From Planctomycetota bacterium (GTDB lineage Bacteria > Planctomycetota > UBA1135 > JACQFD01): a stretch of 64,000 bases of DNA. A program made the position numbers and the translations under genes. Location: positions 8,220 through 72,219 of the forward strand of contig JBJXHE010000076.1 in assembly GCA_046160785.1 (NCBI GenBank), read 5' to 3'. How positions within the stretch are numbered: position 1 is the stretch's first letter; each line of letters begins with the position of its first letter. Of the stretch, positions 31,670 through 47,878 are shown in pieces. The notes under the pieces are model-generated. The model had not been told where the DNA came from. It worked only from the letters and a program-made list of their open reading frames with translations, and ran no database searches.

Positions 31670-33757
31670 TTATAAAACTTCGTACCAGGTGAGTTCGTCG
31701 AAGCGAACGTCCGTGGGAACGTCGCCGACCATAACAGTTACAATTTTTCGATCGCGCTGAATCCGGCGAACCTGGCAGCGCCGCCGGAATTTTGGAACGT
31801 AAACAATCGCGTCGCGCTTCAGCCGATCGACAAATTGCGCGCGCTTTTGTTCGATCGGATCTGTAGTGATCGCCGTTTCGAGTTCCGTGCGCAGATCGCG
31901 CAGTTTTGTATCAAAGGGTTTCGGCGCGCCCGCGATGAGCGTCTCGAATTGTTCTTTTAACAATACGCGCAACTTTGTTAACGATTCGTCCACCTGCCTT
32001 TGCGCCTCAGCCGCGAGCGCCGCGGAACGTTGCTCGACCGCGCGTTCGTGCTCCTCGATTTGTAGTCTCTTCTGATCGGCGGAATGTTCCAAATCGTCGG
32101 CGCGTTTACGCGCCGCGTCGGCTTCGATTCTTGCATTTTGAATCGCGGCGATCACGGCGTCGTGGTGCTGGTCTTTTCGCTCGATTCCTAAATGTGCATT
32201 TTCAAGAATAGACGCGGGAATTCCAACGCGCTTTGCTACGGCGAGCGCCTGCGACGACCCGGGCATTCCTACAATAATTCGATACTTCGGCTGCAGCGTG
32301 TCAGGGTCGAATTCTACAGTTCCGTTTTCGGCGCGCGAATGTTTGTAGGCTAATTCTTTAAGTTTGCCGAGGTGCGTCGTCGCGATCGTTCGAATTCCGC
32401 GCGAAAGGTAATATTCAAGTATCGCCTCGCCGAGCGCGGCACCCTCGGCGGGATCGGTTCCTGCGCCGACTTCATCGACCAAGACTAACGATTCGCGCGT
32501 CGCGTATTTGATAGAATGCGCGACGCGGACCATGTGCGACGAAAACGTCGACAGCGATTGTGATATTTCCTGTTCGTCGCCGATGTCTACAAATATCGCG
32601 TCGAAGCCCGGAATTTCCGCGTGCCGCGCCGGAACCGGCAGACCCGAAAGCGCCATCGCGGAAAGCAGGCCAACGGTTTTTAATGCTACTGTTTTTCCTC
32701 CGGTGTTCGGGCCAGTAATAACAAATAAATCATACTCGCCGCCGATCTCCATGTCGATCGGAACGATATCGTGCAACACCACCTTTCCCGCTTCTTCAAG
32801 CGACCTCTCTAACAATTTCGGATGACGCGCGCCGGAGATTTTTAGTTTTCGGTTTTTTGTTATTTCAGGAATGCAACAATGAAACAGCTCCGCGAAACGC
32901 GCTTTGGTAAATTCAATTTCAAGATCGGCGAGAAATTCCTGCGAGCGCAGAATGAGTTCGCCGCGCGACAAAAGCGTTTTTGATAATTCGAGCAAAATTA
33001 ATGAAACCTCGCGCGCGATCACTACGGATATTTCCGCGAGCTCGTTCCCGATCTCGACGACTTCCTCGGGCTCAATGTAAACCGTGCTTCCCGTCGACGA
33101 TCGATCTAACAATAAACCGGGCACGCGGCCGCGGAACTCCGAACGCACGGCGAGCGCCGGCCGGTAGTTTCTATAAATAGGTTTTAGTGAATTTAATGAT
33201 TTACGGACTTCCGCGCGCGAAAGCACGTGATGCAGCACGCGTTCGACCTCGGCTTCCGCGGCGCGCCTTTTCGCGTGGGCTTCTGATAATTTAACACTCG
33301 CGTTTTCATATATCTCGCCGCGCGGGTCGATCGAGCGGTCGATTTCATCGCACAATTCGGTGAGATCGGGAATCGCCGCGGCAAGCGAGCCGAGAAGCGG
33401 CGCGTCTTTTATTAAATTTAACAGATGTTTCTTAATATCCATTCCGCGCCGCACGGAGTTTGCAATTCGCGCAACGTCCTTCGGCTCGAGCGGCCGGCCG
33501 CCGCCCGAAAGATGGCGAACGAGGTCGCGAACGTCTTCGGCGGCGCCAAACGCCGGCGCGCGTCCGGTTTTTGTTAGTAAAATCGCCTCGGTTGTTTTTT
33601 GTAAATGATCGCGGGTTTCGGCGGGCAAACGAAACGGTGCAATATTCCGGGCGCGGCCGCGGCCGAGTCCGGTCAGCGCAAGAGAGGCGACGCGTTCCCG
33701 CACGACTTCGAATTCGAGCGCGCCGAGGGAAAATGGATCGTCGAATGGTAAAAACAA
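31670..33757 (-). CDS. mutS2: MutS2-family ATPase (endonuclease MutS2/RqcU-like) lacking a C-terminal Smr domain
   Basis: Walker A ITGPNTGGKTVALKTVGL, DE box LVLVDEVGAGTDP, THLGKLK, long coiled-coil. Ends after a short KOW-like segment at 695 aa. Confidence 0.88.
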   Translation of the reverse strand: MFLPFDDPFSLGALEFEVVRERVASLALTGLGRGRARNIAPFRLPAETRDHLQKTTEAILLTKTGRAPAFGAAEDVRDLVRHLSGGGRPLEPKDVARIANSVRRGMDIKKHLLNLIKDAPLLGSLAAAIPDLTELCDEIDRSIDPRGEIYENASVKLSEAHAKRRAAEAEVERVLHHVLSRAEVRKSLNSLKPIYRNYRPALAVRSEFRGRVPGLLLDRSSTGSTVYIEPEEVVEIGNELAEISVVIAREVSLILLELSKTLLSRGELILRSQEFLADLEIEFTKARFAELFHCCIPEITKNRKLKISGARHPKLLERSLEEAGKVVLHDIVPIDMEIGGEYDLFVITGPNTGGKTVALKTVGLLSAMALSGLPVPARHAEIPGFDAIFVDIGDEQEISQSLSTFSSHMVRVAHSIKYATRESLVLVDEVGAGTDPAEGAALGEAILEYYLSRGIRTIATTHLGKLKELAYKHSRAENGTVEFDPDTLQPKYRIIVGMPGSSQALAVAKRVGIPASILENAHLGIERKDQHHDAVIAAIQNARIEADAARKRADDLEHSADQKRLQIEEHERAVEQRSAALAAEAQRQVDESLTKLRVLLKEQFETLIAGAPKPFDTKLRDLRTELETAITTDPIEQKRAQFVDRLKRDAIVYVPKFRRRCQVRRIQRDRKIVTVMVGDVPTDVRFDELTWYEVL

Positions 33758-35462: not shown

Positions 35463-35921
35463 CTACGAAAATGACCCCCGCCGAGGGCGTTCCAGGACAA
35501 ACGTGGCCGGCCCTTCATTCACGAGTTCCACCTCCATGTCCGCTCCGAAGATGCCCGTTTCAACGCTTAGACCCTTCGTACGAAGGACTTCGACAAGCCG
35601 GTCGACGAGCGCTCGTCCGGCGTCCGGCGAAGCGGCGCGGTCGAACGACGGCCGCCGCCCTTTCTCGCCGTCGGCAGCGAGCGTGAACTGACTTACTACA
35701 AGTACGGAACCGTTCATATCCGCAATGGATAGATTCATTTTTCCGGCCGCGTCGGGAAATATTCGATATTCGCTAATTTTAGTTCCGAGCGCCGCAGCGT
35801 CGGCGTCGGTGTCGCCCGTGAGCGCGCACGCTAAGACTAAGATTCCCTTTTCGATACTTCCCGCGACGCGCCCGGCAACCGTTACCTTCGCGCGCGAAAC
35901 GCGCTGAATCACTGCAATCAT
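35463..35921 (-). CDS. dtd: D-aminoacyl-tRNA deacylase
   Basis: MIAVIQRVSRAKV start, VSQFTLAAD and GRRPSF motifs. 152 aa. Confidence 0.92.
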   Translation of the reverse strand: MIAVIQRVSRAKVTVAGRVAGSIEKGILVLACALTGDTDADAAALGTKISEYRIFPDAAGKMNLSIADMNGSVLVVSQFTLAADGEKGRRPSFDRAASPDAGRALVDRLVEVLRTKGLSVETGIFGADMEVELVNEGPATFVLERPRRGSFS

Positions 35922-36967
35922 TATATTATTAATTTTCGAATTGTTACAACGTTCGCGGAGCCGCTTTCGGTCTCGGCGTCGACGGCTTCCAACTCCTGCA
36001 AGCGGACGCGCGCGCGCGTTTGATATAAAAACGGCTGTCCTTCGGCACGGCTCAAGTATCGTTTAAAATGGAGTATCGCCGCTTCTTTATCATTCTCGCA
36101 CTTGTCGGCGACGACCGCTAGATTAAATTCCGGCGTAGGATCATCGGGATGTTCAATTAAAAGTCTTTGATATATCTGTTTCGCCGCGCTGACGTCTTCC
36201 GGTTGCGGAGTTACATTTTTAGTTAGTATCGCTTTCGCGAGGCCGAGCCAAGCCTGCGCGTCGCCCGGTTTTTCGTCCGCCAACTTTCGAAACTCCTCTT
36301 CAGCTTCTTCAATTTGTTCAATATTCTGGCGCAACGATGCTAAGAAAAGCCTCTCCTCACGCCGCCCGGGATAGCGACGAACGTACTGTTTAATCGCGTC
36401 CACCGCTTCTGTAGCATCCGAATCCCGGAGCAATATTGCATACGCGCGCATCGCTGGAAAAAAGTCGGGGTGCAAGTCGAGAGCGTGGCGAAACCAAACA
36501 TTAGCATTCTTGGGTTCACTGCCTTTTGCCTCCCAAAATCCGCGCGCGTACCACGCCCACGGAAACTGGTCGTCGCGATCGATCGCTTTCATAGCATTCG
36601 CGAGACCGTCGGCGGGCGATTCTTGCAGTCGCGATAATAATGTTAAATGCAGCGCCGTAGGCTGCGCCTCCGCTAATTGTAAATATTCTAATTCGACTTC
36701 CTTTTTCTTCCCGCCTGCGATCATCGCGTCCTGATACATCTGGTGGACATAAATATGATCCGGAAACTTTGCGCGTAACAATTGTATTGATTGGATTGAA
36801 GCTTCAGTTTGTCCGCTCGCAAATTTTTCTTTAACTCGTGCCCACTCGTCCTCGGCGGCCGCATCCCCGCCGAAACCCTCGTATTTTAAAATATAACTTT
36901 TCGGCCGCGCGATGCCGCAGCCGGCGGATATAAGGAATATTAATATTAGCGAAGCGAACCGTCTCAC
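35921..36967 (-). CDS. TPR-repeat lipoprotein
   Basis: Lipobox LISAGC after a hydrophobic N-terminus. The rest is helical with TPR-like A/Y/W periodicity. GTG start overlaps the upstream stop (GTGA); its stop overlaps the dtd ATG (TAATG). Confidence 0.6.
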   Translation of the reverse strand: MRRFASLILIFLISAGCGIARPKSYILKYEGFGGDAAAEDEWARVKEKFASGQTEASIQSIQLLRAKFPDHIYVHQMYQDAMIAGGKKKEVELEYLQLAEAQPTALHLTLLSRLQESPADGLANAMKAIDRDDQFPWAWYARGFWEAKGSEPKNANVWFRHALDLHPDFFPAMRAYAILLRDSDATEAVDAIKQYVRRYPGRREERLFLASLRQNIEQIEEAEEEFRKLADEKPGDAQAWLGLAKAILTKNVTPQPEDVSAAKQIYQRLLIEHPDDPTPEFNLAVVADKCENDKEAAILHFKRYLSRAEGQPFLYQTRARVRLQELEAVDAETESGSANVVTIRKLII

Positions 36968-37494
36968 GGCGTCCGGCGGATGGAGTATCTATCGTCGTCA
37001 ACGTCGACCCGCGAAATGTTTTGATGCTTTTGCGAGTCGCGGAAAAGTAGAGAAACGCCCGTTGCGCGGATGCGCGCCGCGGCCGCGTCTTTTTCTGTTA
37101 TAAATAATATTTCGATCGGTCCGTGCGACGCAAGGCGCCATTCACCACAATTCACGCGCGCAGGCGTCTTCACCGGCACGCCGTCCGCGGGCGGTTTTAT
37201 GGATATACGACGCCCGTACTCTGTTTGGAATTCGTCTTGTTTATGTACATTCGGCGCAATTGTTAATTCGGAGTACAGCGCCGGCGGCAGAAACAATTCA
37301 ATTTTGTTAGCTAAGATTTCGGTCCGTATCGCCACCGCCTTGCGCGCGCGCGAGTCGTACTCCGGATTTTCGGGCATCGTGATGCGGCGCGTCGCGGGCG
37401 CCGACTCGGGGCCGCCCGGCGATTTGCACGAAAACGCAGCCGGGATACAACAAAAAGAGACAACGAATATTTTTTGTAGTAAATTGAGACTCAT
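36964..37494 (-). CDS. hypothetical lipoprotein
   Basis: N-terminal hydrophobic segment with Cys (IPAAFSC). No recognisable family. Translationally coupled to the TPR gene. Confidence 0.5.
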   Translation of the reverse strand: MSLNLLQKIFVVSFCCIPAAFSCKSPGGPESAPATRRITMPENPEYDSRARKAVAIRTEILANKIELFLPPALYSELTIAPNVHKQDEFQTEYGRRISIKPPADGVPVKTPARVNCGEWRLASHGPIEILFITEKDAAAARIRATGVSLLFRDSQKHQNISRVDVDDDRYSIRRTP

Positions 37495-37737
37495 TTTACA
37501 GTTGATAGAATTGGCGACGACGAGCGCGTTGCCGGCGTGGACTCAACTAAGCTGGACGCCGCGCCTGGAGGTTGCTTATTATATCAACTCAACTTCGCCG
37601 GCCGTAGAGTTGGTTTCAAAGTCGGAACAACACTTCGCGCCGCGCCTTCGTTACATCTCTGCGCGGCCGCCGCAGACGCGGCGCGCGAAACGGCGCCGGT
37701 TGTTGTCTACAATCGGAGCCTCCCCGGTCCCGCGCCG

Positions 37738-39264
37738 ATGCCGACAGTCCCAAAAAGTTTATTAATAATTCTCTTATCAGTCCTCGCCGCAGGGTGTGCG
37801 GTGCCACCGGCGGATCTACATCTTGCGCCGCTTTATTCTTATCATCAAATCGCGGGCGGCGGATACGCACATGAGGCGCTCGGTGGAATTGTAGAATACC
37901 GGCGCGAGGAGCCGCGCAGCGGAACAACCTCCGCGCGAGAATTTGGGATCCATCCATTGTTTCGCCATCGAAGTGAAGTGAATCCGAATAGTGCATTTCC
38001 CGGAGAACGCGAAACAAGCGAAACGGATGTCATTTGGCCGCTCGGACATTTCCGTTCCGACCTCGAAGAAACCTACAGCCGGTTTTTCCCGTTTTGGTGG
38101 TATCAAAAACATACTAATGAAAAAGGCGAGTCGGAAACCGACTGGTCTGTGTTTCCCATTCTCTTCGGCGGCAGCGGAACTCCCGAGAATAGTTATTTTG
38201 CATTCTTTCCATTCTTTGGAACGATTCGCGACTTTCTTACTTATGACGAAGTAAACTTTATATTATTTCCAATCTTTGCATCGACTGTTAAGAATCCGGG
38301 CAATCAGAAGAGTTATGCAATCCTGTTTCCGTTCACCGGCTGGGGAAGCGGCGACGGCGGATGGTCGTGGTGGCGCGTCTGGCCGTTGTATGGACACTCG
38401 GAATACCCCGGTCACTACGACCGAAAATTTGTGATGTGGCCGTTCTGGCATTCCGAGCGGAATTATTTAGATACGGGAAGCCCTTCGGATGAATGGATGC
38501 TTTGGCCTTTTTATGGTGAAGCCGATCGCGGCGCAACCCATTCGCGAACCGTCCTTTGGCCGCTTTTTGGTTGGAATTGGAATGATGAAACGAACTATTC
38601 CGGCTGGGACGGCCCATGGCCATTCGTTAAGTTCATTCGCAACGGGAGCGGAACGCCTTACTCACATTCGCGCGTGCTTCCGTTTTATAGTAATTACAAA
38701 GGTGATGAAATCGATTCAGTAAATTATCTTTGGCCAATTGTATGGTTGCGCGAGGAGACGGGGCCCGATTATTACAGAAACGCGACGTACGTCGTGCCGT
38801 TTTTTTATCATTCAAAATCCAAACGTAAAATTCGAGACAACAATTCCGGGAATATTGTTGAAGAGAGCGGTTCGTCGGCGCTGATCTGGCCGCTCTATCG
38901 TTATGAACACAAACCCGGCGGCGCGACGCACGCCGAAGCGCTGTGGCCCCTTCCGTATCCAAAACTTCGCGGATTTCGCGAAAACTGGTGGCCGTTCTTT
39001 TCGTTATACTCGCACGACGCCCGCCCCGATGGCAGTTCTTCCACACGATTATTCTTAAACTTGTTCCGGCACGAAAGCGACAACCTCTCCACGCGATGGT
39101 CAATCCCCATTCTCGGCGGACGCGCAAGCTACGCGGACGGATCGTCGGAGTGGTCGGTATTGTTAGGATTGCTGCGGTGGAGATCACAAATAGACGGTTC
39201 GAGCTTTTTGTTACCTGCGTTTCCTGGGCCCGGCTTTAACGCTACAGAACGCGGCGGACGCTAA
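37738..39264 (+). CDS. Trp-Pro repeat lipoprotein (about 20 [aromatic/aliphatic]-P-[LFI] repeats), first gene of the mla-like operon
   Basis: Internal ATG at 37738 gives MPTVPKSLLIILLSVLAAGC (lipobox). The ORF-track start at 37537 adds 67 non-signal aa. There are 10 exact W-P-[LFI] cores plus ~10 related ones. Ends 24 nt before mlaE. Confidence 0.6.
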   Translation: MPTVPKSLLIILLSVLAAGCAVPPADLHLAPLYSYHQIAGGGYAHEALGGIVEYRREEPRSGTTSAREFGIHPLFRHRSEVNPNSAFPGERETSETDVIWPLGHFRSDLEETYSRFFPFWWYQKHTNEKGESETDWSVFPILFGGSGTPENSYFAFFPFFGTIRDFLTYDEVNFILFPIFASTVKNPGNQKSYAILFPFTGWGSGDGGWSWWRVWPLYGHSEYPGHYDRKFVMWPFWHSERNYLDTGSPSDEWMLWPFYGEADRGATHSRTVLWPLFGWNWNDETNYSGWDGPWPFVKFIRNGSGTPYSHSRVLPFYSNYKGDEIDSVNYLWPIVWLREETGPDYYRNATYVVPFFYHSKSKRKIRDNNSGNIVEESGSSALIWPLYRYEHKPGGATHAEALWPLPYPKLRGFRENWWPFFSLYSHDARPDGSSSTRLFLNLFRHESDNLSTRWSIPILGGRASYADGSSEWSVLLGLLRWRSQIDGSSFLLPAFPGPGFNATERGGR

Positions 39265-39288: not shown

Positions 39289-40122
39289 GTGGAAATAACT
39301 CAAAACACGCCCAAGACCGGGTTCTCCATATTTGATTGGTTCCTGCGTGTAACGTACGGCGCTGGGGAAGTTATATTTTTATTATTTAATACAGCTAAAC
39401 GGCTCAATCATAAATCTTTTACAAAAGCGCGCGTACTCGCAACGGTGGAACAGATGTACGCGGGCGGCGTCCTGGCCGTTCCTATCGTCATGATGGTGAG
39501 CCTTTTTGTAGGAATGGTGCTCGCGCTGCAGACGGGTATCGAGCTCGGAAAATTCGGCCAGCAGGATTTGATAGGAACGATTGTTAGCGTTGCAATGTGC
39601 CGCGAAATGGGCCCGCTCATCACGGGAATTATATTAGTTGCCGCGGTCGGATCGGCGATGGCCGCGGAACTCGCGACGATGTCCGTCTCCGAAGAACTCA
39701 CGGCCCTCGACGTCATGACCGTTGATAAGATTCGGTTTTTAGTCGTTCCGCGCGTGATTGCGCTCGCGCTGATGTGTCCGATATTAACATTAATTTCGGA
39801 TCTGATCGGAATCGCGGGAGGCGGTTTTATTGCTAGCGAGCGGCTCGGCGTTTCCGGGCATCTTTATTTAAATACTACGATTGAAGCACTGCGGCGCGAG
39901 TCGCTGTTTGGATTTCCAAAGGATATCTACGTCGGCGTTTTTAAATCATTCATATTCGGAATTGCCATTGCCAGTATCGCGTGCGCGGCGGGAATGCACG
40001 CGACCAACGGCGCCCGCGGCGTGGGCGATGCAACGCGGCGAGCGGTGCGCACGGCAATATTACTGATCGTAGTATTAAATTATCTGATCACCGGCCTCTT
40101 CTTCGGGTTGCTCCCGGATTAA
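39289..40122 (+). CDS. mlaE: Mla-type ABC transporter permease (MlaE family)
   Basis: 277-aa polytopic protein. MlaE-like core (GPLITGIILVAAVGSAMAAELATM, LTALDVM). GTG start. Confidence 0.85.
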   Translation: MEITQNTPKTGFSIFDWFLRVTYGAGEVIFLLFNTAKRLNHKSFTKARVLATVEQMYAGGVLAVPIVMMVSLFVGMVLALQTGIELGKFGQQDLIGTIVSVAMCREMGPLITGIILVAAVGSAMAAELATMSVSEELTALDVMTVDKIRFLVVPRVIALALMCPILTLISDLIGIAGGGFIASERLGVSGHLYLNTTIEALRRESLFGFPKDIYVGVFKSFIFGIAIASIACAAGMHATNGARGVGDATRRAVRTAILLIVVLNYLITGLFFGLLPD

Positions 40123-40142: not shown

Positions 40143-40880
40143 ATGATCGAATTCCAAGACGTTTACCAGAACTTCGGCAAGAACGAAGTATTAAAAGGCC
40201 TTTCGTTCAAAGTTAACGATGGCGATTGTTATGTTTTGATGGGGCCGTCCGGCTCCGGCAAGAGCACGACGTTATTACATATCGTCGGCGTGCTCAAACC
40301 CAAGAAGGGCCGCATCATCGTGCATGGTGTCAATGTTAATGATGCCGACGAAGAAGTATTGCAAGAGTTGAGGCGAAAGGTAGGAATGGTGTTTCAAGGC
40401 GGCGCTCTCATCAACTGGCTCAACGTTTTTGATAATGTTGCTCTGCCGCTACGAGAGACGCAGGATCTCCCCGAGGATGAAATTGAAAAAAGAGTTATAG
40501 AGTCGCTGGCGAGAGTATTATTAGATAAAGAACTTACTAAACTTCCGTCGGAGCTTTCGGGTGGCATGCGAAAACGCGTTGCGCTCGCTCGCGCGCTCGT
40601 CACGGCCCCGCCGCTGATTCTTTATGATGAACCGACCGGCGGCCTCGACCCTGCGATGTCGGTACAAATCGCAAATCTTATACTTGAATTCAAACGCCAC
40701 GGCGTCACGTCCGTGGTTGTTACACATGACGTGGAATGCGCGCGCCGCGTCGCCGATCGGATTGGTATATTATCCGAAGGCAAAATTATAGTCGAAGGCG
40801 GCGTGAGCCTCCTCGATAGTAATGATCCGCACGTCCTCGAATTTCTCGGCCATAAAGCTCCAACTGGAGGATCACGGTGA
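40143..40880 (+). CDS. mlaF: Mla-type ABC transporter ATPase (MlaF family)
   Basis: Walker A GPSGSGKST, signature LSGGMRKRVALARAL, Walker B LILYDEPTGGLD, H-loop VVVTHD. Confidence 0.88.
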   Translation: MIEFQDVYQNFGKNEVLKGLSFKVNDGDCYVLMGPSGSGKSTTLLHIVGVLKPKKGRIIVHGVNVNDADEEVLQELRRKVGMVFQGGALINWLNVFDNVALPLRETQDLPEDEIEKRVIESLARVLLDKELTKLPSELSGGMRKRVALARALVTAPPLILYDEPTGGLDPAMSVQIANLILEFKRHGVTSVVVTHDVECARRVADRIGILSEGKIIVEGGVSLLDSNDPHVLEFLGHKAPTGGSR

Positions 40881-42106
40881 CCGCCGGCAAAACTAGCAAA
40901 CCTGCTCAATATATATTTGTAGGGCTCATTTTCTTTGGCGTCCTCGCCCTTCTCATCGGAGCTACAGTTTTTCTCTCCGAGCGAGTCTACGGATCGACCG
41001 ACGCCGTATATGTTATATTCGAAAAAGCGCTCGGCGTCCGGAAGGGCGATCCCGTGATGGTCGCGGGCGTAACGGAGGGTTACGTTCGCGAAATTGAGCT
41101 TCTCGCGAATGTTATGGAAAAGCCGGATCCATCAAATCCGGGAGTTACATTTAAGAATCGCGTGCGCCTTCGATGCGAATTGCGGCGCGCCGATGCGGAC
41201 CGCGTCAAGGTCCACGAAGGCTACAAAATTTTTATTGAATACGCGTCGGTTCTCGGCGGCCGCGTCGTGGCGATCGATCCCGGCGAACTAACAAGACCGG
41301 TAGTTGTACATTCTAAAGATAATCCGCTTCAGGGGCGCGTGCGCCCTGATCCGCTCGCTGCACTCGGCGAATTGATAGAAGAAAACCGCGCCAGCATCCG
41401 CGAAGCGATTGTTGAAATACGCGACACGTTCCGCGACGTGCGCACCGGCAAGGGACTGCTCGGCAAGATCATTAGTGATCCTGAAGTTGCTCAGAAGTTT
41501 GATAAGATTGTATCCGATATCGAAAAAGTAACAGATAACTTGAGCACGGGCAAAGGCGCGCTCGGCATGGCAATTAGCGACCCGGAAGTCGCGCGGCAGT
41601 TCCGCGATATTATTAAGAATATCGACGATGTAACGATTAAATTAAATAGTAGCGACGGCACGCTCGGCCGCTTGATCAACGATACGACCTGGGCAGACCG
41701 AATTGATAAAGTTACGCTCGACGTGTCCCAGATCACTGGAAAGTTGAATAGCCCGGAAGGCACGCTCGGGAAACTTATTAATACAAACGAACTCCACGAC
41801 CGCATCGTTCGAATTGTAGACAAGCTCGACGTCGCGATGGAACGCATCAACGACGGCACAGGCCTGCTCGGAAAAATCATTCATGACAAAGAAATGGGCG
41901 ATGATGCAAAACAACTCGTCCACGATATTAAAGAAACGTTTGCAACCATAAATCGCGGCGAAGGAACGCTCGGCCGGCTTGTTAAAGATGATTTGTTAAT
42001 TCGGCAGCTCGAAAGACTCTTCCGCCAGGTCAGCCGCTCGATCGAAGACGCCCGCGAGGCGGCTCCAATTGCTACATTCTCGTCGGTGTTGTTTGGCGCG
42101 TTTTGA
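40877..42106 (+). CDS. mlaD: MCE/MlaD-domain substrate-binding protein with six C-terminal ~34-aa repeats
   Basis: N-terminal TM then MCE core (VYVIFEKALGVRKGDPVMVAGVTEGYVREIEL). GTG start overlaps the mlaF stop (GTGA). Repeats are of the G-x-L-G-[KR]-[LI]-I-x-D type. Confidence 0.8.
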   Translation: MTAGKTSKPAQYIFVGLIFFGVLALLIGATVFLSERVYGSTDAVYVIFEKALGVRKGDPVMVAGVTEGYVREIELLANVMEKPDPSNPGVTFKNRVRLRCELRRADADRVKVHEGYKIFIEYASVLGGRVVAIDPGELTRPVVVHSKDNPLQGRVRPDPLAALGELIEENRASIREAIVEIRDTFRDVRTGKGLLGKIISDPEVAQKFDKIVSDIEKVTDNLSTGKGALGMAISDPEVARQFRDIIKNIDDVTIKLNSSDGTLGRLINDTTWADRIDKVTLDVSQITGKLNSPEGTLGKLINTNELHDRIVRIVDKLDVAMERINDGTGLLGKIIHDKEMGDDAKQLVHDIKETFATINRGEGTLGRLVKDDLLIRQLERLFRQVSRSIEDAREAAPIATFSSVLFGAF

Positions 42107-42327: not shown

Positions 42328-43449
42328 CTAACTCCTCATCGACTCAAAAAACGTGATCCCCAAACTTCCAAAGACTACAGTTGGAAGCCACGCCGCGAAA
42401 ACCGCGCCCACGGCGCCCTGTTCGCCCAATTGGAAACATATTAACGTTGCGGCGTAGTATGCGATCACGAGTCCAAATGCAATGATCGCGCCTTCGAGCG
42501 TCGACCGGCGGTCGGAGCGAAGCACGCACGGCAAACCCAGCAATGGTAATATCAAATTCGCAATCGCGAACGCGAACGCCGAGTGAAGTGCGATTTGATA
42601 TTTGATAGATCCCTTCATTCGCCCCGCGTACATATCCAATTCGGAAATAGATAAATATCCCGGATCGCCTTGGGCGCGCGCGGCAACTTCGCAGTCGCGG
42701 GATGTTAACGTAAACTCCGCGGGCAGCGTCTCGATCGCCTTCGATTCGCTCGATTCCGGCATGAGCCGCGCGATACTTTTTAATTTGCCATTCGTGAGCG
42801 CGAGCGGCCCATCGCCGCCGCCAACTGTAAACTTCCCATCGCTCGCCGAAATATTCTTAAACTTCTGGCCGTCGCTCGAATTGCCCTGAAATCCCGTCCC
42901 CGACTCCGCCTTCGGATCATACAATTCCCATGTATAGCGATTGCCGCGCGAATCGACGACCGCGAGATTCTTAACAACATGCCGCGGCTCCGCTTTGAAT
43001 AGGATTGTTTGCAGCACGGCCTGGTCGCGCGCGATTCCCGGAAGTAAATATTCGCGAAACGACAATTGAATCCCAGCGATCAAAACAGCCCCCGCGAAAA
43101 TGGCTACAAATCCGCGCTGGAGGCTCGTTCCGCTCGCGAGCAATGCTACTGTTTCGTGATTGCGATGGAGGCGCGCCGCCGTGAACACCGCGGCGAAGAA
43201 TGTAACAAATGGAGCAAATTGAAAGAACCGAATCGCGATTTCGAAACTATAATATTTCACGGCCATCGGAAAAATCGCGCGCGCGAGTTCGGGCTCGCCC
43301 TTCTGCCGCAGTTTTTTTGATGCAACAATTAAATCGTCGAAGTGTTGAAACTGGTCCGTTAATAATAACAATCCGGTCGCAAATAAAACGCCGACCGCGA
43401 GCGATCCCAGAAACACGCGGAAAACGTAGCGATCCGTCCTGCGGATCAA
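42328..43449 (-). CDS. lptG: LPS export ABC permease, LptG-like (YjgP/YjgQ family)
   Basis: LIRRTDRYVFRVF start is typical of the family; six TM segments plus a periplasmic beta-jellyroll region. TTG start at 43449 overlaps the lptF stop (TTGA). The ORF-track extension to 43695 overlaps lptF. Confidence 0.75.
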   Translation of the reverse strand: MIRRTDRYVFRVFLGSLAVGVLFATGLLLLTDQFQHFDDLIVASKKLRQKGEPELARAIFPMAVKYYSFEIAIRFFQFAPFVTFFAAVFTAARLHRNHETVALLASGTSLQRGFVAIFAGAVLIAGIQLSFREYLLPGIARDQAVLQTILFKAEPRHVVKNLAVVDSRGNRYTWELYDPKAESGTGFQGNSSDGQKFKNISASDGKFTVGGGDGPLALTNGKLKSIARLMPESSESKAIETLPAEFTLTSRDCEVAARAQGDPGYLSISELDMYAGRMKGSIKYQIALHSAFAFAIANLILPLLGLPCVLRSDRRSTLEGAIIAFGLVIAYYAATLICFQLGEQGAVGAVFAAWLPTVVFGSLGITFFESMRS

Positions 43450-44684
43450 CGGCGCACCAATCGATAAAAGAATGCACAACTCAGAATCGCGAGCAGCGCG
43501 GATGCCGGCCACGCGCAGAGCGCCACCGGAATATGTTGTTTTTGAATCAGCGCGTCGCCCGCCTTCGTGAGCGGAAAATATAATATAAATACAATTCCGA
43601 GCGCCGCGACGATTGCAAACAACCGCGTGCCGCGCTTCAGCCAGATCGCGATCGGCGCGCCGATCATTCCAAATAATAACGATGCGAACGACCACGCGAT
43701 GCGCCGCTCGAATTCATACCAATTAACCCGCGATTCTTTAAAATCGTATTCATAACGTTTCTTTTCCGCGGGATCTTTACTATTTTTTGAAAGCAGCGTT
43801 AACCTGCGGTCGGCGCGCCGCGCGATTCCTACCAATTCGTCCGACGTCATGAATTCCCGCCTATCGCGGAAGTTTGATTTGTTGCGTAACGCTAACTTTT
43901 CGAGAAGTATCGAAAAACTCGCCTGGCCAAACGAACGCTTTTCGCCCGCGTGAAAACCTGTAAAAACAAGCCGGTATGTCAACGGTTCATTAACAATTTC
44001 GAGCCGCTCCGCGAAACCCTGCAAAACAGATTTATCATCATTGGATTTATCATGAACAGGATTCGTCGCGGACGCGGGATCGCCCGTTTCTATTGTTACA
44101 TCGCCGGGCTTCGAAGCAGTCTCTCCGCTCTTCGAAGCAGCGCCTTCCCCCTTCGACCCGCCGCGAAAATCAATATAAACATCTTCGAGGACGGCGCCCT
44201 CGCGCCGCTGCCAAGATAAATATAAACGTATCTCCGGAATGTCAATTTCGTTTCTGCCGGAGTCGAGATTCATAATCGACTGCGAGGCCAAATCATCAAA
44301 TATCCGGTCGCGCGCAATCCATAGATTCGGCACGACGAATGCTAATAAATACGATTGAAGCGCGGACAGCAGCAGGCCTGTTAATAATACGGGCGCCAGG
44401 ATGCGAAATGGATGGATTCCGCACGCCTGCGTCGCGAGATATTCATTTTCCGCCGAGATGCGGCCGTACGTAAACAAAACGGCGACGAGAAACGCGAACG
44501 GAGTTAACAATTCGCTGCGCGATAGCAGCGCCATCGGCGCGAACGTTAACGAAATGAGCAGCGGAACTTCGCGGTGTGTGAATAGTTGTATAACAGTTCC
44601 AATGGTAGCGATCGAATAGATCACAATCATTGCAAATAAAAAATTTACAATGAGTTCGCGCAGGAGAAAGCGTTCGAGACGCAA
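43446..44684 (-). CDS. lptF: LPS export ABC permease, LptF-like (YjgP/YjgQ family)
   Basis: MRLERFLLRELIVNF start (TTG). Same architecture, with a Ser/Gly/Asp-rich insert in the periplasmic domain. Confidence 0.75.
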   Translation of the reverse strand: MRLERFLLRELIVNFLFAMIVIYSIATIGTVIQLFTHREVPLLISLTFAPMALLSRSELLTPFAFLVAVLFTYGRISAENEYLATQACGIHPFRILAPVLLTGLLLSALQSYLLAFVVPNLWIARDRIFDDLASQSIMNLDSGRNEIDIPEIRLYLSWQRREGAVLEDVYIDFRGGSKGEGAASKSGETASKPGDVTIETGDPASATNPVHDKSNDDKSVLQGFAERLEIVNEPLTYRLVFTGFHAGEKRSFGQASFSILLEKLALRNKSNFRDRREFMTSDELVGIARRADRRLTLLSKNSKDPAEKKRYEYDFKESRVNWYEFERRIAWSFASLLFGMIGAPIAIWLKRGTRLFAIVAALGIVFILYFPLTKAGDALIQKQHIPVALCAWPASALLAILSCAFFYRLVRR

Positions 44685-44826
44685 TGCGGCCTTCTGGAAT
44701 TGTTAACTGCAGAGTATATTGCGGAATACGTAATTCATGTTGCCTGCGCGCGCCCAGTATGTGAATAGAGATAGCGGATCACCAGTACGCATCCTTCGCC
44801 CCGAGAAGAAGTGTTCCGCGTACTTT

Positions 44827-45795
44827 ATGTTAGAAGTGTTGATAAGTACTTCGCAGACTGGCCCCCGAGTGAAACGATCGCACCGATTGAAATACGCCGC
44901 GCAGGGCATCGCTCTGCGCGCGGGATTCTTTGCGTGTCGCGCGATCCCGTTTCGCGCGCGCGTCGCGTTTTTCTCAGGCGTCGCGCGCCTCTGCGAATCA
45001 TTGGTATTTCGGGGAATGGCAAAAAAGAATTTAGAAACGGCCTTTGGTAATGAACTTTCAAAAACGGAACAGCGCAATATTCGGCGCGCCAACGCACGCG
45101 CAGTCGGACAGATGGCGGCGGAGTGGGTTGATTTTAATCATGACCATGGCGCGCTCGTCGAACGGCGAATTATTGTTGATGATACTATTTCGCTTCTCGA
45201 AGAAACGATGAAACTACAAAAAGGCGCGATCATGATCACGCCGCATTTCGGAAATTGGGAATTGATACCTGCCTATCTGATACGCCGCGGCTACCTCGGC
45301 GCCGTCGTCGCGCGCATGCCCGCGAATCCAATCTTAGCAAAGTTATTAGTAGATATTCGCGCGCGCGCAGGCGTGGAATCGCTCGACGCGCTCCTGCAGC
45401 GGCGCCGGATCGTTCGAGTATTGCAATCCGGCGGAATTGTAGGAATCCTCCCCGACCTCGACAGCAAACGCGCCGCGGGCGTATTTGTTAATTTCTTCGG
45501 AAAACCCGCGTGGACTCCCACCGGCCCCGCTCACCTCGCGATTCTCTCGGGCGCGCCGATTATTCCAACCTATCTGCTCCCCGAAGACGGCCGCTACCGC
45601 CTCATTTTTGAACCAGCGATTCTTCCGAATCTTAATATTGATAAACAAACCGAAATCCTAAGATTAACGCAGGCGTGGTGCGAGCGATTCGAAGCCCGCA
45701 TTCGCGCGAATCCCGAACACTGGGTGTGGATGCACGATCGCTGGTCGACCACACCCGAAAAAGCGATCGAGCGCAGAAACCGCCGCGCGCGGTAG
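44827..45795 (+). CDS. lipid A biosynthesis late acyltransferase (LpxL/HtrB family)
   Basis: Catalytic motif ITPHFGNWEL (H-x4-E), NLETAFGNELS and ILPD motifs. ATG at 44827 chosen; the ORF track starts at 44737. Confidence 0.75.
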   Translation: MLEVLISTSQTGPRVKRSHRLKYAAQGIALRAGFFACRAIPFRARVAFFSGVARLCESLVFRGMAKKNLETAFGNELSKTEQRNIRRANARAVGQMAAEWVDFNHDHGALVERRIIVDDTISLLEETMKLQKGAIMITPHFGNWELIPAYLIRRGYLGAVVARMPANPILAKLLVDIRARAGVESLDALLQRRRIVRVLQSGGIVGILPDLDSKRAAGVFVNFFGKPAWTPTGPAHLAILSGAPIIPTYLLPEDGRYRLIFEPAILPNLNIDKQTEILRLTQAWCERFEARIRANPEHWVWMHDRWSTTPEKAIERRNRRAR

Positions 45796-45853: not shown

Positions 45854-47878
45854 ATGTATACAGTTTTCGCCGCCGCCGCCCTCGCGTTTTGTTGGAATAT
45901 ACAGAATGACGCGCCCAAGGAAATTACTAAAGAAGTTACATTTGATAAATTAGTAACGTCGCTCGCCGATTTGAACTGGCTCGCGGAAACGCCAACACCT
46001 GGCGAAAAATGTATCCAATTTTCGAGCTACGATCGCGCAAGCCACAAAGATAGTAAAGACGACGCGGGCTGGTTTGCTAACAATGACGCGGGGCAATTCA
46101 TCCGCGAAGAGAAAGTCGGCGACCGGATTGAATACGTCATGGCCGACGTCGACGGACCCGGCGCGGTCGTCCGCATCTGGTCGGCGAATGCTAACGATGC
46201 GGGAGATTTAAGATTCTATTTTGATAACGAAAAGGAAGCGAGTTTTACAATTCCGTTTGTGGATTTAGCGGGCGGAACGAAAGCGCCGTTCATCGAGCCG
46301 TTTTGCGGCGTCCACGCGCGCGGTTGGAATTGTTATATACCGTTTCCGTTCGCCAAGCATCTCAAGATTACGGCGTCGAAGAAGGGATTTTATTATCAAG
46401 TAAACATTCGTCAATTTGGACACGCTGCGACTGTTAAGTCCTTCTCGAAAGAATTGTTATTGGATCCGATCCTAAAGAAAACCGCTACAAGACTGCTGAA
46501 CGATCAAATTCTCGACGGCCTGCCAATCGATAGTTTTGCCGTCGGTAAATCCGTTTCGCTCCCCGCTGGAGGATCAAAAACAATATTGAGACCCTCGTCC
46601 GGTGTCGTGAACTATTTTACTTTGACGCCTGGCAATGCAATGACGCGCAACGACCTGCGATCATTGCGTATTCAAATTTTATTTGATGGATCGGATCAAC
46701 CTGCCGTCGATTGCCCTTTTGTTGACTTCTTTGGAACGGCGCCGGATTTTGTTAAATATAAGACTTACGTGATCGGAATCGACGGCGCAGGTTCCGGTTA
46801 TTGTAAATTTCCTATGCCGTACCAGAACGGGGCTGTTTTTCGCTTTTTGAACGAAGGGGCCACGGCGGTTCAATTTGAGTATCGCATCGGAAATCGCGAT
46901 TCCACCGACGACGATGTAAAGATTCCCCCCCTCCGCTTCCACGCGAAATATATCCAAAAGAATGCTATTAAAACGCAGCCGCGATCGGATTATTTAATAT
47001 TAGATGCCGACGGGCCCGGTCGATTTGTAGGATGTTCACTCATGGTAAGGAATCCGGTTCGCGTTTGGTGGGGCGAAGGCGATGAACATATCTTTGTCGA
47101 CGGCGAATCGTTTCCGAGCACATTCGGCACCGGAACCGAAGATTATTTTGGTTATGCGTGGTGCGATCCGACGCCGTTCTCCGCGGCGTTTCATAGCCAA
47201 AGCCGCTGCGACGGGCCCGGCAACCGCGGTTTCACATCGGTTAACCGATTCCACATCGGCGATTCGATACCATTCCAGAAGATACTAAAATTCGACATGG
47301 AAGTGTGGCATTGGGCGAACACGGAGGTTGACTACAGTTCCGTCGCCTATTGGTATGCTCCGGCGAATGCTAAGGATCGAATGCCGCCGCTTCCGCCCGC
47401 GAAGGAGCGCCTCGTGCGCGAACTGCCGGCGGCCGAAAGTAAATATAAAGATTCGTTCGAAGGCGAAGCGTTATTAAAAACATTAACAAAAACCGGCGGC
47501 GGCGTGATGATCCAGGACATGGCCGGCTTCGGCGAACATTGGAGCCGCGAGGAACAATTGTGGTGGACCGGCGCAAAACCCGGCGACCAGCTCGACCTGC
47601 CATTTGATACAAAAGAACTTGGCGCGGTTACGCTTCGCGCGCAATTAACAAAAGCAGCCGACTACGGAATTGTACAATTCCTGCTCGACGGCGTCGCGAT
47701 CGGCCAGCCCTTCGATGGTTACAATAACGGCGTCGTCGCGAGCGGCGACATCGAAATCGGCCGTGCTCATCTCGGCGCCGGCAAGCACACGCTCTCTATT
47801 AAAATCACCGGCGCGAATCCGAAAGCCTTCCCGCAGCACATGGTTGGAATCGACTATTTTCGAATTGCCCAACAATAG
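45854..47878 (+). CDS. DUF2961 / GH172-like protein with an extra C-terminal beta-rich domain
   Basis: FSSYDRAS near the N-terminus and WWGEGDEHIFVDGESFPSTFGTGTEDYFGYAW match my recollection of DUF2961. N-terminal hydrophobic signal-like segment. Confidence 0.7.
   Translation: MYTVFAAAALAFCWNIQNDAPKEITKEVTFDKLVTSLADLNWLAETPTPGEKCIQFSSYDRASHKDSKDDAGWFANNDAGQFIREEKVGDRIEYVMADVDGPGAVVRIWSANANDAGDLRFYFDNEKEASFTIPFVDLAGGTKAPFIEPFCGVHARGWNCYIPFPFAKHLKITASKKGFYYQVNIRQFGHAATVKSFSKELLLDPILKKTATRLLNDQILDGLPIDSFAVGKSVSLPAGGSKTILRPSSGVVNYFTLTPGNAMTRNDLRSLRIQILFDGSDQPAVDCPFVDFFGTAPDFVKYKTYVIGIDGAGSGYCKFPMPYQNGAVFRFLNEGATAVQFEYRIGNRDSTDDDVKIPPLRFHAKYIQKNAIKTQPRSDYLILDADGPGRFVGCSLMVRNPVRVWWGEGDEHIFVDGESFPSTFGTGTEDYFGYAWCDPTPFSAAFHSQSRCDGPGNRGFTSVNRFHIGDSIPFQKILKFDMEVWHWANTEVDYSSVAYWYAPANAKDRMPPLPPAKERLVRELPAAESKYKDSFEGEALLKTLTKTGGGVMIQDMAGFGEHWSREEQLWWTGAKPGDQLDLPFDTKELGAVTLRAQLTKAADYGIVQFLLDGVAIGQPFDGYNNGVVASGDIEIGRAHLGAGKHTLSIKITGANPKAFPQHMVGIDYFRIAQQ

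Follow-up and report, generated by a model that had tools for sequence, protein, structure and literature searches.

Outside a few Proteobacteria, it has yet to be settled how diderm bacteria move phospholipids between their membranes, and the locus described here raises the question of which protein might receive the outer end of a periplasm-spanning lipid transporter when the operon encodes none of the familiar partners. The locus lies in a 64,000-nucleotide stretch of DNA from a Planctomycetota bacterium (GenBank assembly GCA_046160785.1, contig JBJXHE010000076.1, positions 8,220 to 72,219 of the forward strand), which we refer to as a whole as "the window" and within which all positions are numbered. 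The open reading frame (ORF) at 37738..39264 of the plus strand (stop codon included) translates into a lipoprotein of 508 amino acids (aa) built from Trp-Pro hairpin repeats, to which we give the name REP, and it is followed on the same strand by genes for an MlaE-type permease, an MlaF-type ATPase and an MlaD-type MCE protein. The arrangement of these genes in other genomes makes it very probable that REP is one of the dedicated parts of the MCE system, and we are inclined, with reservations that are set out below, to see in it the lipoprotein by which the transporter docks at the outer membrane (OM).

Genomic linkage of REP to the mlaEFD genes

The stop codon of REP ends at 39264 and mlaE starts at 39289, in agreement with the original prediction that the two co-oriented genes are separated by 24 nucleotides (nt), and mlaF and mlaD follow on the same strand. 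The mlaE-type gene (39289..40122, plus strand) has a GTG start and encodes an ATP-binding cassette (ABC) permease (PF02405, E=1.3e-66; TIGR00056, E=3e-61). The mlaF-type gene (40143..40880, plus strand) encodes an ABC ATPase that matches ABC_tran (PF00005, E=9.6e-33) and, below the cut-off of the model, the NCBIfam MlaF model PRK11831 (E=4e-51). The MlaD-type gene (40877..42106, plus strand), which overlaps mlaF by 4 nt, encodes a 409-aa protein with an N-terminal transmembrane helix and one MCE domain (PF02470, E=2.1e-8). The permease, the ATPase and the MCE protein of an MlaFE-MlaD-type MCE ABC transporter are encoded together in this operon, and homologues of MlaA, MlaB and MlaC are absent from it (window proteins, Pfam), as had been claimed from the sequence at the outset; a PqiC-type gene is likewise absent.

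The MCE protein of the window has a helical-needle region of ~240 aa with six ~34-aa repeats (residues ~190-395), each of which begins with G[TL]LG[KR]LI, and among NCBIfam models it comes closest to NF047463, the "Mce" model of Leptospira (E=4.7e-41, below the cut-off); orthologues in related loci carry PF28544 (Helical_needle). It ends in a hydrophobic C-terminal tail, P397-IATFSSVLFGAF409-COOH (42065..42103, plus strand), which is conserved across loci. The motif LE[ED]xREAAP[IV]x[TS]F..[VL][LF]FG[AG]F-COOH is kept in ~60 of them, and in distant MCE lineages Pro is followed by 12-14 hydrophobic residues, as in ...SPITTFTSIFFGAF and ...VPVSIFGTIIGTIIK. Judged from these sequences, the MCE partner of REP is always of the needle type and always carries a conserved hydrophobic C-terminal tail.

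The linkage between REP and the transporter genes was examined in a scan of one genome per GTDB species, which used a single peptide pattern together with alignment A3 (alignments A1 and A2 being too diverse for the scan), yielded 66 loci and is biased to a Planctomycetota clade. Two of the 66 loci are uninformative, their contigs ending within 260 bp of the REP gene. In 64 of the 64 loci with enough downstream DNA, tblastn found mlaE directly after REP, followed by mlaF and mlaD; at one locus (L064) mlaF was not detectable. Because of the bias of the scan, 12 distant REP members were also sampled one by one, and ten of these stand beside mlaEFD as well, which bears out the co-occurrence with Mla genes that the original prediction had named as a check on its proposal. 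The four genes occur together, with unrelated flanks, in Engelhardtia, another Planctomycetota metagenome-assembled genome (MAG), Kiritimatiellia, Lentisphaerae, a deltaproteobacterial MAG, NC10 and a planctomycete-like contig. In three further loci the order is permuted to mlaE-mlaF-mlaD-REP, one of these having an overlapping stop and start and one adjoining lolA. With both gene orders taken together, the linkage extends over Planctomycetota, Verrucomicrobiota, NC10 and the deltaproteobacterial MAG. Stop and start codons of operon genes overlap in loci L074 and L076, and such tight or overlapping spacing, to which the 24-nt gap in the window can be added, suggests that REP and the mla genes are co-translated. 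Since their adjacency survives the turnover of flanking genes, changes in gene order and the crossing of phylum boundaries, we regard REP and mlaEFD as a functional unit. Within the operons and flanks of the 12 inspected loci, to which the statement is limited, there is no gene for MlaA, MlaB or MlaC, and a PqiC-type protein is encoded in none of the inspected REP loci.

The N-terminus of REP reads MPTVPKSLLIILLSVLAAG-C20 in the window translation, a lipoprotein signal peptide (37738..37797, plus strand) that ends in the lipobox L-A-A-G-C20 and is followed at position +2 by Ala rather than Asp. Cys20 is kept, each time after a hydrophobic stretch (h-region), in 47 of the 47 homologues of our REP alignment (30-74% identity), and lipoboxes are likewise present in the members from Kiritimatiellia and Lentisphaerae; from these features of its sequence, REP is a lipoprotein. 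The GenBank protein that is identical to the REP ORF (P0001, 487 aa) begins at GTG/Val22 (region 37738-37803), and the deposited annotation is without the signal peptide and the lipidated Cys20 for this reason. By the alignment of homologues, the real start of REP is the ATG at 37738.

A word search returned 411 homologues of REP, and a profile search of 1.84 billion cluster representatives found 2,262 REP clusters (50% identity) at E<=1e-3 and 868 at E<=1e-30; the source name of every member of the family is "hypothetical protein". Members occur in Planctomycetota, among them two cultured organisms, Engelhardtia mirabilis and Saltatorellus ferox, and a MAG that is the source of the exact window protein, and also in Opitutales, Kiritimatiellia, Lentisphaerae, Sumerlaeia, a "Deltaproteobacteria bacterium" MAG and NC10/Methylomirabilales. 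The repeat had at first been described as belonging to no named family, and this stands, as searches of Pfam and NCBIfam (E<=1) and of the Protein Data Bank (PDB) by sequence and by profile gave no match for REP and 67 relatives. In particular, the PqiC-like/ABC-type transport auxiliary lipoprotein profile PF03886 was not matched by REP or 59+8 relatives in Pfam at E<=1, REP has no Pfam or NCBIfam match to MlaC (PF05494), and the 20-aa hairpin repeats of the CW_binding_1 and YD/Rhs types gave no Pfam match at E<=1 in 68 members of the family. Literature searches likewise found no prior description of it. REP constitutes a new family, and its fold is apparently undescribed; the type of system (an MCE ABC transporter with a lipoprotein cap) is already known.

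Several members of the family are of interest in their own right. P0168 (JGI metagenome 3300071358) is a Lys-rich giant relative of 1767 aa with ten profile matches and a non-lipobox signal. Its gene lies amid those for glycoside hydrolases (GH2, GH92) and an alpha-2-macroglobulin and has no mla neighbours, a context which suggests that the hairpin repeat is also used outside MCE systems. P0264 (locus L072, 97-1737) is a Cys-less relative with a signal peptide, encoded directly upstream of a TAtT (PF16811) gene on a 3.6-kb contig. P0201, from the deltaproteobacterial MAG (L073, 6001-7962), has a hydrophobic N-terminus, then ~190 aa of an acidic, Pro-rich and internally duplicated linker, then the hairpin repeats, with mlaE-mlaF-mlaD downstream. 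A typical Planctomycetota-type REP-mlaEFD cluster (L031) is found on a 5.7-kb contig binned as Candidatus Paceibacteria, of the candidate phyla radiation (CPR), which are normally monoderm, and this contig is probably mis-binned. An apparent REP-MlaE fusion with PF02405 (P0016, ENA, 536 aa) begins within a repeat, includes a garbled stretch and continues past the REP stop codon, and was set aside as a likely frameshifted call from an error-prone assembly.

Architecture of the Trp-Pro hairpin repeats

Some 20 copies of the Trp-Pro motif had been counted originally, and this count holds, as 16 strict and 4-6 degenerate copies give a total of ~20-22. The strict form, x-[WFLVIM]-P-[LFIV]-[FYWLVG], occurs 16 times in REP, as compared with a mean of 1.07 and a maximum of 6 in 2000 shuffles, and the composition of the protein is extreme (W 27, F 37, Y 28, P 41, G 48, S 50). 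The spacing of the motifs, first described as irregular at ~13-45 aa, is in fact 17-22 aa, each apparent gap of 31-38 aa holding a degenerate copy.

The AlphaFold2 (AF2) model of REP, made with the 47-sequence alignment, has a mean predicted local distance difference test score (pLDDT) of 92.5 and a predicted template-modelling score (pTM) of 0.82, with all five models at >=91. In this model the repeat region, residues 27-491 (37816..39210, plus strand), is folded into ~22 hairpins of ~20 aa; the 45 beta-strands are short, mostly of 5-6 residues, and the sole helix (413-421) has 9 residues. A Kiritimatiellia homologue that is only ~25% identical is modelled with the same architecture, namely 46 strands and a single helix that corresponds in position (pLDDT 90.7, pTM 0.77). 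The C-terminus of REP, ...PAFPGPGFNATERGGR (ending NATERGGR), is of low confidence or disordered (pLDDT 56 for 501-508).

The strand map of the AF2 model and the turn table derived with it place the Trp-Pro motif at the tip of every second beta-turn, instead of on the strands, where the original prediction had pictured an aromatic girdle. The odd-numbered turns carry the motif (IWPL, FPF, FPI, FPF, LFPI, LFPF, WPL, MWPF, WPF, LWPL and, further along, PWPF, LPF, LWPI, VPF, WPL), and the even-numbered turns are polar and made of Gly, Asp, Asn and Glu (DLE, NEKGE, GTPENS, NPGN, GDGGW, PGH, DETN, GDE, GPD, DNNSGN). Over 361 members of the family, the mean Wimley-White interfacial energy is negative in 21 of the 22 odd turns (sum ~-31 kcal/mol) and positive in 21 of the 22 even turns (sum ~+51 kcal/mol). 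The consensus pooled from 15 repeats in these 361 sequences reads [F/W]-x-L-W-P-[L/F/I]-[F/Y/V/W]-G-...-R-..., followed by a Gly/Asp/Glu turn, and its Pro is 96% conserved. Hydrophobicity is confined to positions -4 to +2 around this Pro, the other ~13 positions being mainly R, E, S, T, D and G whatever their parity. As modelled, REP is a beta-meander of ~45 strands and ~22 hairpins with phi-W-P-phi-phi tips along one edge, and, because the meander puts the odd turns on one edge, it would form a single-layer sheet with one greasy and one polar edge and no hydrophobic face. The aromatic-Pro pairs at these tight turns presumably adopt type VI (cis-Pro) turns. The many-stranded beta-barrel or solenoid that had been suggested for the repeats is upheld in its all-beta part by the AF2 models and fails as a membrane-spanning barrel, given the strand length of 5-6 residues, the polar residues on both faces, the restriction of hydrophobicity to the tips and the disordered C-terminus.

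Insights into the global shape of REP can be drawn from mean-field direct coupling analysis (DCA) of 361 family sequences (effective number ~343), a data set of modest size that is partly confounded by phylogeny. Coupling between neighbouring strands across both kinds of turn averages 0.87, against a background of 0.40, which argues for a continuous meander in which sequential strands pair at odd and even turns alike. Beyond these local pairs, one long-range contact between strands stands out (strand-pair z=9.8). It joins an N-terminal segment, residues 42-50 with E46 and G49 (37861..37887, plus strand), to a C-terminal segment, residues 434-442 with R437 and L440 (39037..39063, plus strand). 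The pair 49-440 ranks second among all DCA pairs of the protein and shows swaps of small and large residues (G-W 178, G-L 105, A-G 20, F-G 6, W-A 5), and three compensatory swaps can each be placed on a single branch of the tree. The pair 46-437 shows swaps of charge (E-R 139, R-E 101, K-E 14, R-D 14) and is oppositely charged in 78% of sequences, the top fraction among distant charge-variable column pairs. Since both pairs have the common offset i-j = -391, hairpin 42-50 would lie against hairpin 434-442, and the covariation suggests that the REP strip probably closes on itself through an overlapping clasp of its N- and C-terminal segments. As a matter of geometry, ~40 strands at ~4.8 Å each would give a circumference near 200 Å and hence a wall ~60 Å across and <20 Å high.

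Pairs of hydrophobic tips are enriched ~3-fold among the long-range DCA pairs, where they join all repeats with all repeats; this signal is ambiguous, and we read it as a sign of a common environment or composition and not of specific contacts. A two-layer fold-back sandwich was considered and rejected, as the strand-pair couplings contain no consistent anti-diagonal. Foldseek searches of the PDB with both AF2 models found no global fold match (query-normalised template-modelling (TM) score <=0.19). The local matches include the single-layer sheets of TCP10/G-box proteins and OspA, beta-propellers, the teneurin YD shell (weak, TM<=0.16), the ApoB100 belt, VDAC and TOM40, the best of them being 4bxr (probability 1.00), 4bxq (TM 0.44 on the target) and OspA variants. 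An 11-blade beta-propeller was also rejected as a description of REP, despite the propellers among the top matches, as TM-scores are 0.10-0.15 even to double propellers and the period is 20 aa instead of 40-45 aa.

Possible roles of REP in the MCE transporter

By analogy with MCE systems that are already understood, we consider it moderately probable that REP is the OM docking lipoprotein of a periplasm-spanning REP-MlaE-MlaF-MlaD lipid transporter. According to this proposal REP would be sorted to the OM, where its tip rim and its acyl chains would sit in the inner leaflet and its polar rim would face the periplasm. The strip, closed through the terminal clasp, would form a low, wide, single-layer beta wall, and the tip of the hexameric MCE needle, with its six hydrophobic C-terminal tails, would dock at or inside this wall, creating a sealed lipid-exchange site that joins the lumen of the needle to the OM. 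Lipid movement would be powered by ATP hydrolysis by MlaF-MlaE at the inner membrane. Such a role would go some way towards accounting for lipid traffic between the membranes of many non-model bacteria. REP might in this way do for its MCE needle what the unrelated octameric ring of PqiC/PA3214 does for PqiB/PA3213. A more detailed version, which we offer as distinctly tentative, is that REP is a monomeric "beta-crown" of ~40 strands in a single layer, held in one leaflet by ~20 aromatic-proline tips and its lipid anchor, which encircles the tip of the MCE needle and makes up the lipid portal of the OM together with the six MCE tails.

A number of observations weigh against the proposed docking role or against parts of it. 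Two of the 12 sampled distant members, P0168 and P0264, are not beside mla genes, and the REP fold is on that account not exclusively an accessory of Mla systems. P0201 is without a lipobox and has instead a non-lipobox signal or anchor and an acidic linker; its long tether may let an inner-membrane anchor reach the OM, or it may reflect a different sorting route. The Ala at position +2 of the lipobox is weak evidence for the sorting of REP, and the outer leaflet of the inner membrane would be an equally possible site for the hydrophobic rim. The closure of the ring and the size of its lumen rest on covariation among ~343 effective sequences and on geometry, and not on coordinates of the models, and the diffuse covariation among the tips could mean that they are buried in a common core instead of facing lipid.

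The doubt about the membrane leads directly to the alternative that REP is a collar at the inner membrane, which would surround or stabilise the base of the MlaFE-MCE complex with its rim in the periplasmic leaflet, and might for example gate the entry of lipid between MlaE and the MCE ring. The lipid anchor, the single hydrophobic rim and the obligatory operon linkage fit such a collar too, lipoprotein sorting signals are uncharacterised in these phyla, and a wide ring could in principle encircle the MCE hexamer. We nevertheless consider a collar unlikely: it leaves the conserved hydrophobic tail at the far end of the needle without a role, the MCE-associated lipoproteins that have been characterised (MlaA, PqiC, PA3214) are all located at the OM, the +2 residue is Ala and not Asp, and the gene for LolA adjoins the operon in one locus. 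Less probable still is an anchored carrier or belt, similar to MlaC or an apolipoprotein, the rim of which would hold lipids and exchange them with the MCE needle without docking to it. The strongly interfacial character of the rim, the ApoB100 beta-belt among the weak local Foldseek matches and the lack of MlaC in the inspected operons and flanks would suit a carrier of this kind, but hydrophobicity is found only at the tips of the hairpins, and the strands offer no groove or pocket face.

The remaining two alternatives lie further from the docking role, and we give very little credence to either. An integral OM beta-barrel acting in trans, in place of the C-terminal barrel that Veillonella-type MlaD has in cis, comes near to the barrel that was originally envisaged, and it might draw on the all-beta, many-stranded nature of REP, the lack of a barrel in MlaD of the Planctomycetota-Verrucomicrobiota-Chlamydiota (PVC) superphylum and the weak Foldseek matches to VDAC and TOM40. 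Strands of 5-6 residues are, however, too short to cross a bilayer, for which ~9 or more are needed; Arg, Glu, Ser and Asp stand on both faces, with no alternating pattern of hydrophobic and polar residues; the signal is a lipobox and not of the OM-protein type; the disordered C-terminus has no aromatic beta-signal; and TM-scores to barrels are 0.15-0.20. It is equally doubtful that REP is a surface or periplasmic repeat protein unrelated to lipid transport, which binds, for example, glycans or the cell wall and is merely syntenic with mlaEFD. Aromatic hairpin repeats of 20 aa bring to mind the choline-binding and combined repetitive oligopeptide (CROP) repeats, and the settings of P0168, among glycoside hydrolases and without mla, and of P0264, next to a TAtT gene, would agree with such a function. 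A merely syntenic gene is hard to reconcile with an adjacency that outlasts complete turnover of the flanks and a change of gene order in at least four phyla, or with the co-translation implied by the tight or overlapping gene spacing, and no Pfam match to CW_binding, YD or other repeat families was obtained at E<=1.

Surrounding genes and comparison with known systems

The genes that surround the operon in the window differ in how far they are shared with other REP loci. Two tandem LptF/LptG-family permease genes for lipopolysaccharide export (42328-44684, minus strand, and 44737-45795, plus strand; Pfam E=6e-40 and 1e-33) converge on the mlaD stop and are followed by a lipid A biosynthesis acyltransferase gene (PF03279, E=6e-43). 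This envelope-biogenesis neighbourhood is specific to the present genome, as related loci have ribH, trmD, rplS and secDF in its place. Upstream, a divergent unit (35463-37494, minus strand) encodes Dtd, a 348-aa tetratricopeptide repeat (TPR) protein with the lipobox ISAGC and a 176-aa protein with the lipobox AFSC and no family match; this block and, further on, HU keep their synteny with the REP operon across the Planctomycetota lineage, but not in other phyla. In the 243-bp divergent intergenic region, a consensus scan found a tentative sigma-70-like promoter match, TTGAGA-16-TAGAAT (37484..37511, plus strand; 10/12), and the promoter and terminator scans were uninformative, as the counts of sites were about equal to those in shuffles. 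Two other genes of the window, for a 674-aa DUF2961 protein (45854-47878, plus strand; E=6e-69) and a MutS2-like protein (31670-33757, minus strand; MutS_V, E=1e-34), are unrelated to the subject of this report.

In structure, REP recalls single-layer beta-sheets in local detail and the beta-flowers in concept, and it matches neither. The central sheet of OspA and the G-box of CPAP/TCP10 are also meanders of short hairpins with both faces polar and no hydrophobic core; the similarity is local only (query-normalised TM <=0.19), however, and these sheets have far fewer strands, lack both the Trp-Pro tip motif and a lipid-facing rim, and are not linked to transport. The beta-flowers (PF21784-PF21786, clan CL0395) are shallow closed arrays of short hairpins, some with lipoprotein signals and aromatic tips (PMC10584680), and have 8-12 strands in ~100 aa, 4- to 6-fold symmetry and often an enclosed helix (Durairaj et al. 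2023, PMC10584680). REP was rejected as a member of this class on the grounds of its size (45 strands) and the lack of a Pfam match, and the motifs differ as well ([DNEQ]xxG in beta-flowers, phi-W-P-phi-phi in REP). If the proposed role is correct, a core-less beta-meander with a lipid-facing Trp-Pro rim would represent a new mode of membrane attachment, with no Foldseek counterpart in the PDB.

Among transport systems, MlaEFD is a widespread ancestral core, and MlaA and MlaC are mostly proteobacterial (Grasekamp et al. 2023, PMC10665443). The OM beta-barrel of long MlaD proteins is completely absent from MlaD of the PVC and the Fibrobacterota-Chlorobiota-Bacteroidota (FCB) groups, and the same authors raise the possibility of partner proteins that have yet to be identified (PMC10665443). 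REP is a concrete candidate for this missing partner, and its tight linkage to MlaD of the needle type extends to four phyla or more. In the tentative beta-crown version of our proposal, it would supply the OM component long sought for those transporters of the PVC superphylum, NC10 and other phyla that consist of MlaEFD only and have no barrel. Cultured hosts (Engelhardtia mirabilis, Saltatorellus ferox) make a direct test of the idea possible, and a family of >2,000 clusters that is now annotated as hypothetical, and sometimes mis-started with loss of the lipobox, could be named and modelled. With the MlaD barrel of the Veillonella parvula type, REP would share the part of a beta-rich module proposed to anchor an elongated MlaD at the OM in MlaEFD-only systems (PMC10665443), but the barrel is a 10-stranded, membrane-spanning domain fused to MlaD, whereas REP is a separate lipoprotein with strands too short to cross a bilayer.

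The original prediction had suggested that REP might stand in for MlaA, which our analysis does not support, and a closer analogue is the ring of PqiC or PA3214 that caps an MCE needle. MlaA (VacJ, PF04333) is likewise a lipoprotein that works with MlaFE-MlaD, as REP may do by analogy, but it is alpha-helical, has ~250 aa, binds to OmpC/F and reaches MlaD through the soluble MlaC; REP is unrelated in sequence, has no Pfam match to PF04333 and is modelled as all-beta and not as an alpha-helical ring, a bridging needle is present in its MlaD partner, and there is no MlaC gene nearby. In the PA3211-PA3214 system of P. aeruginosa, an MlaE/F-type ABC transporter has an MCE needle capped by an octameric ring of a PqiC-like OM lipoprotein; the needle runs through the ring, and a C-terminal peptide of the MCE protein binds a hydrophobic groove on the side that faces the OM (PMC13631591). 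The inner-membrane part of the REP system is also an MlaE/MlaF-type ABC transporter, and REP, like PqiC and PA3214, is a lipoprotein co-operonic with an MCE protein that has a C-terminal helical needle (PMC13631591, PMC10897342), a pairing of the PF03886 class that is found here with an invariant Cys20 and in 64/64 scanned and 10/12 sampled loci. A short conserved peptide forms the C-terminal end of the MCE protein in both cases, and for REP, too, the role proposed is that of a ring-like cap at the OM end of the needle. The differences are no less clear: the sequences are unrelated; the PqiC octamer is made up of ~190-aa protomers and REP is a single all-beta chain of 508 aa with ~22 hairpins; PqiC has a hydrophobic peptide-binding groove and REP a hydrophobic rim of Trp-Pro tips; and the K306-P312 peptide of PA3213 contrasts with a tail of ~13 mostly hydrophobic residues, ending in Phe, in the MCE partner of REP. 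If REP does act as proposed, PqiC and REP would be a case of convergent evolution, in which unrelated folds gave rise on at least two occasions to ring-like lipoprotein caps for MCE needles. In its functional likeness REP stands first with PqiC/PA3214 and then with MlaA, and it is a member of neither family.

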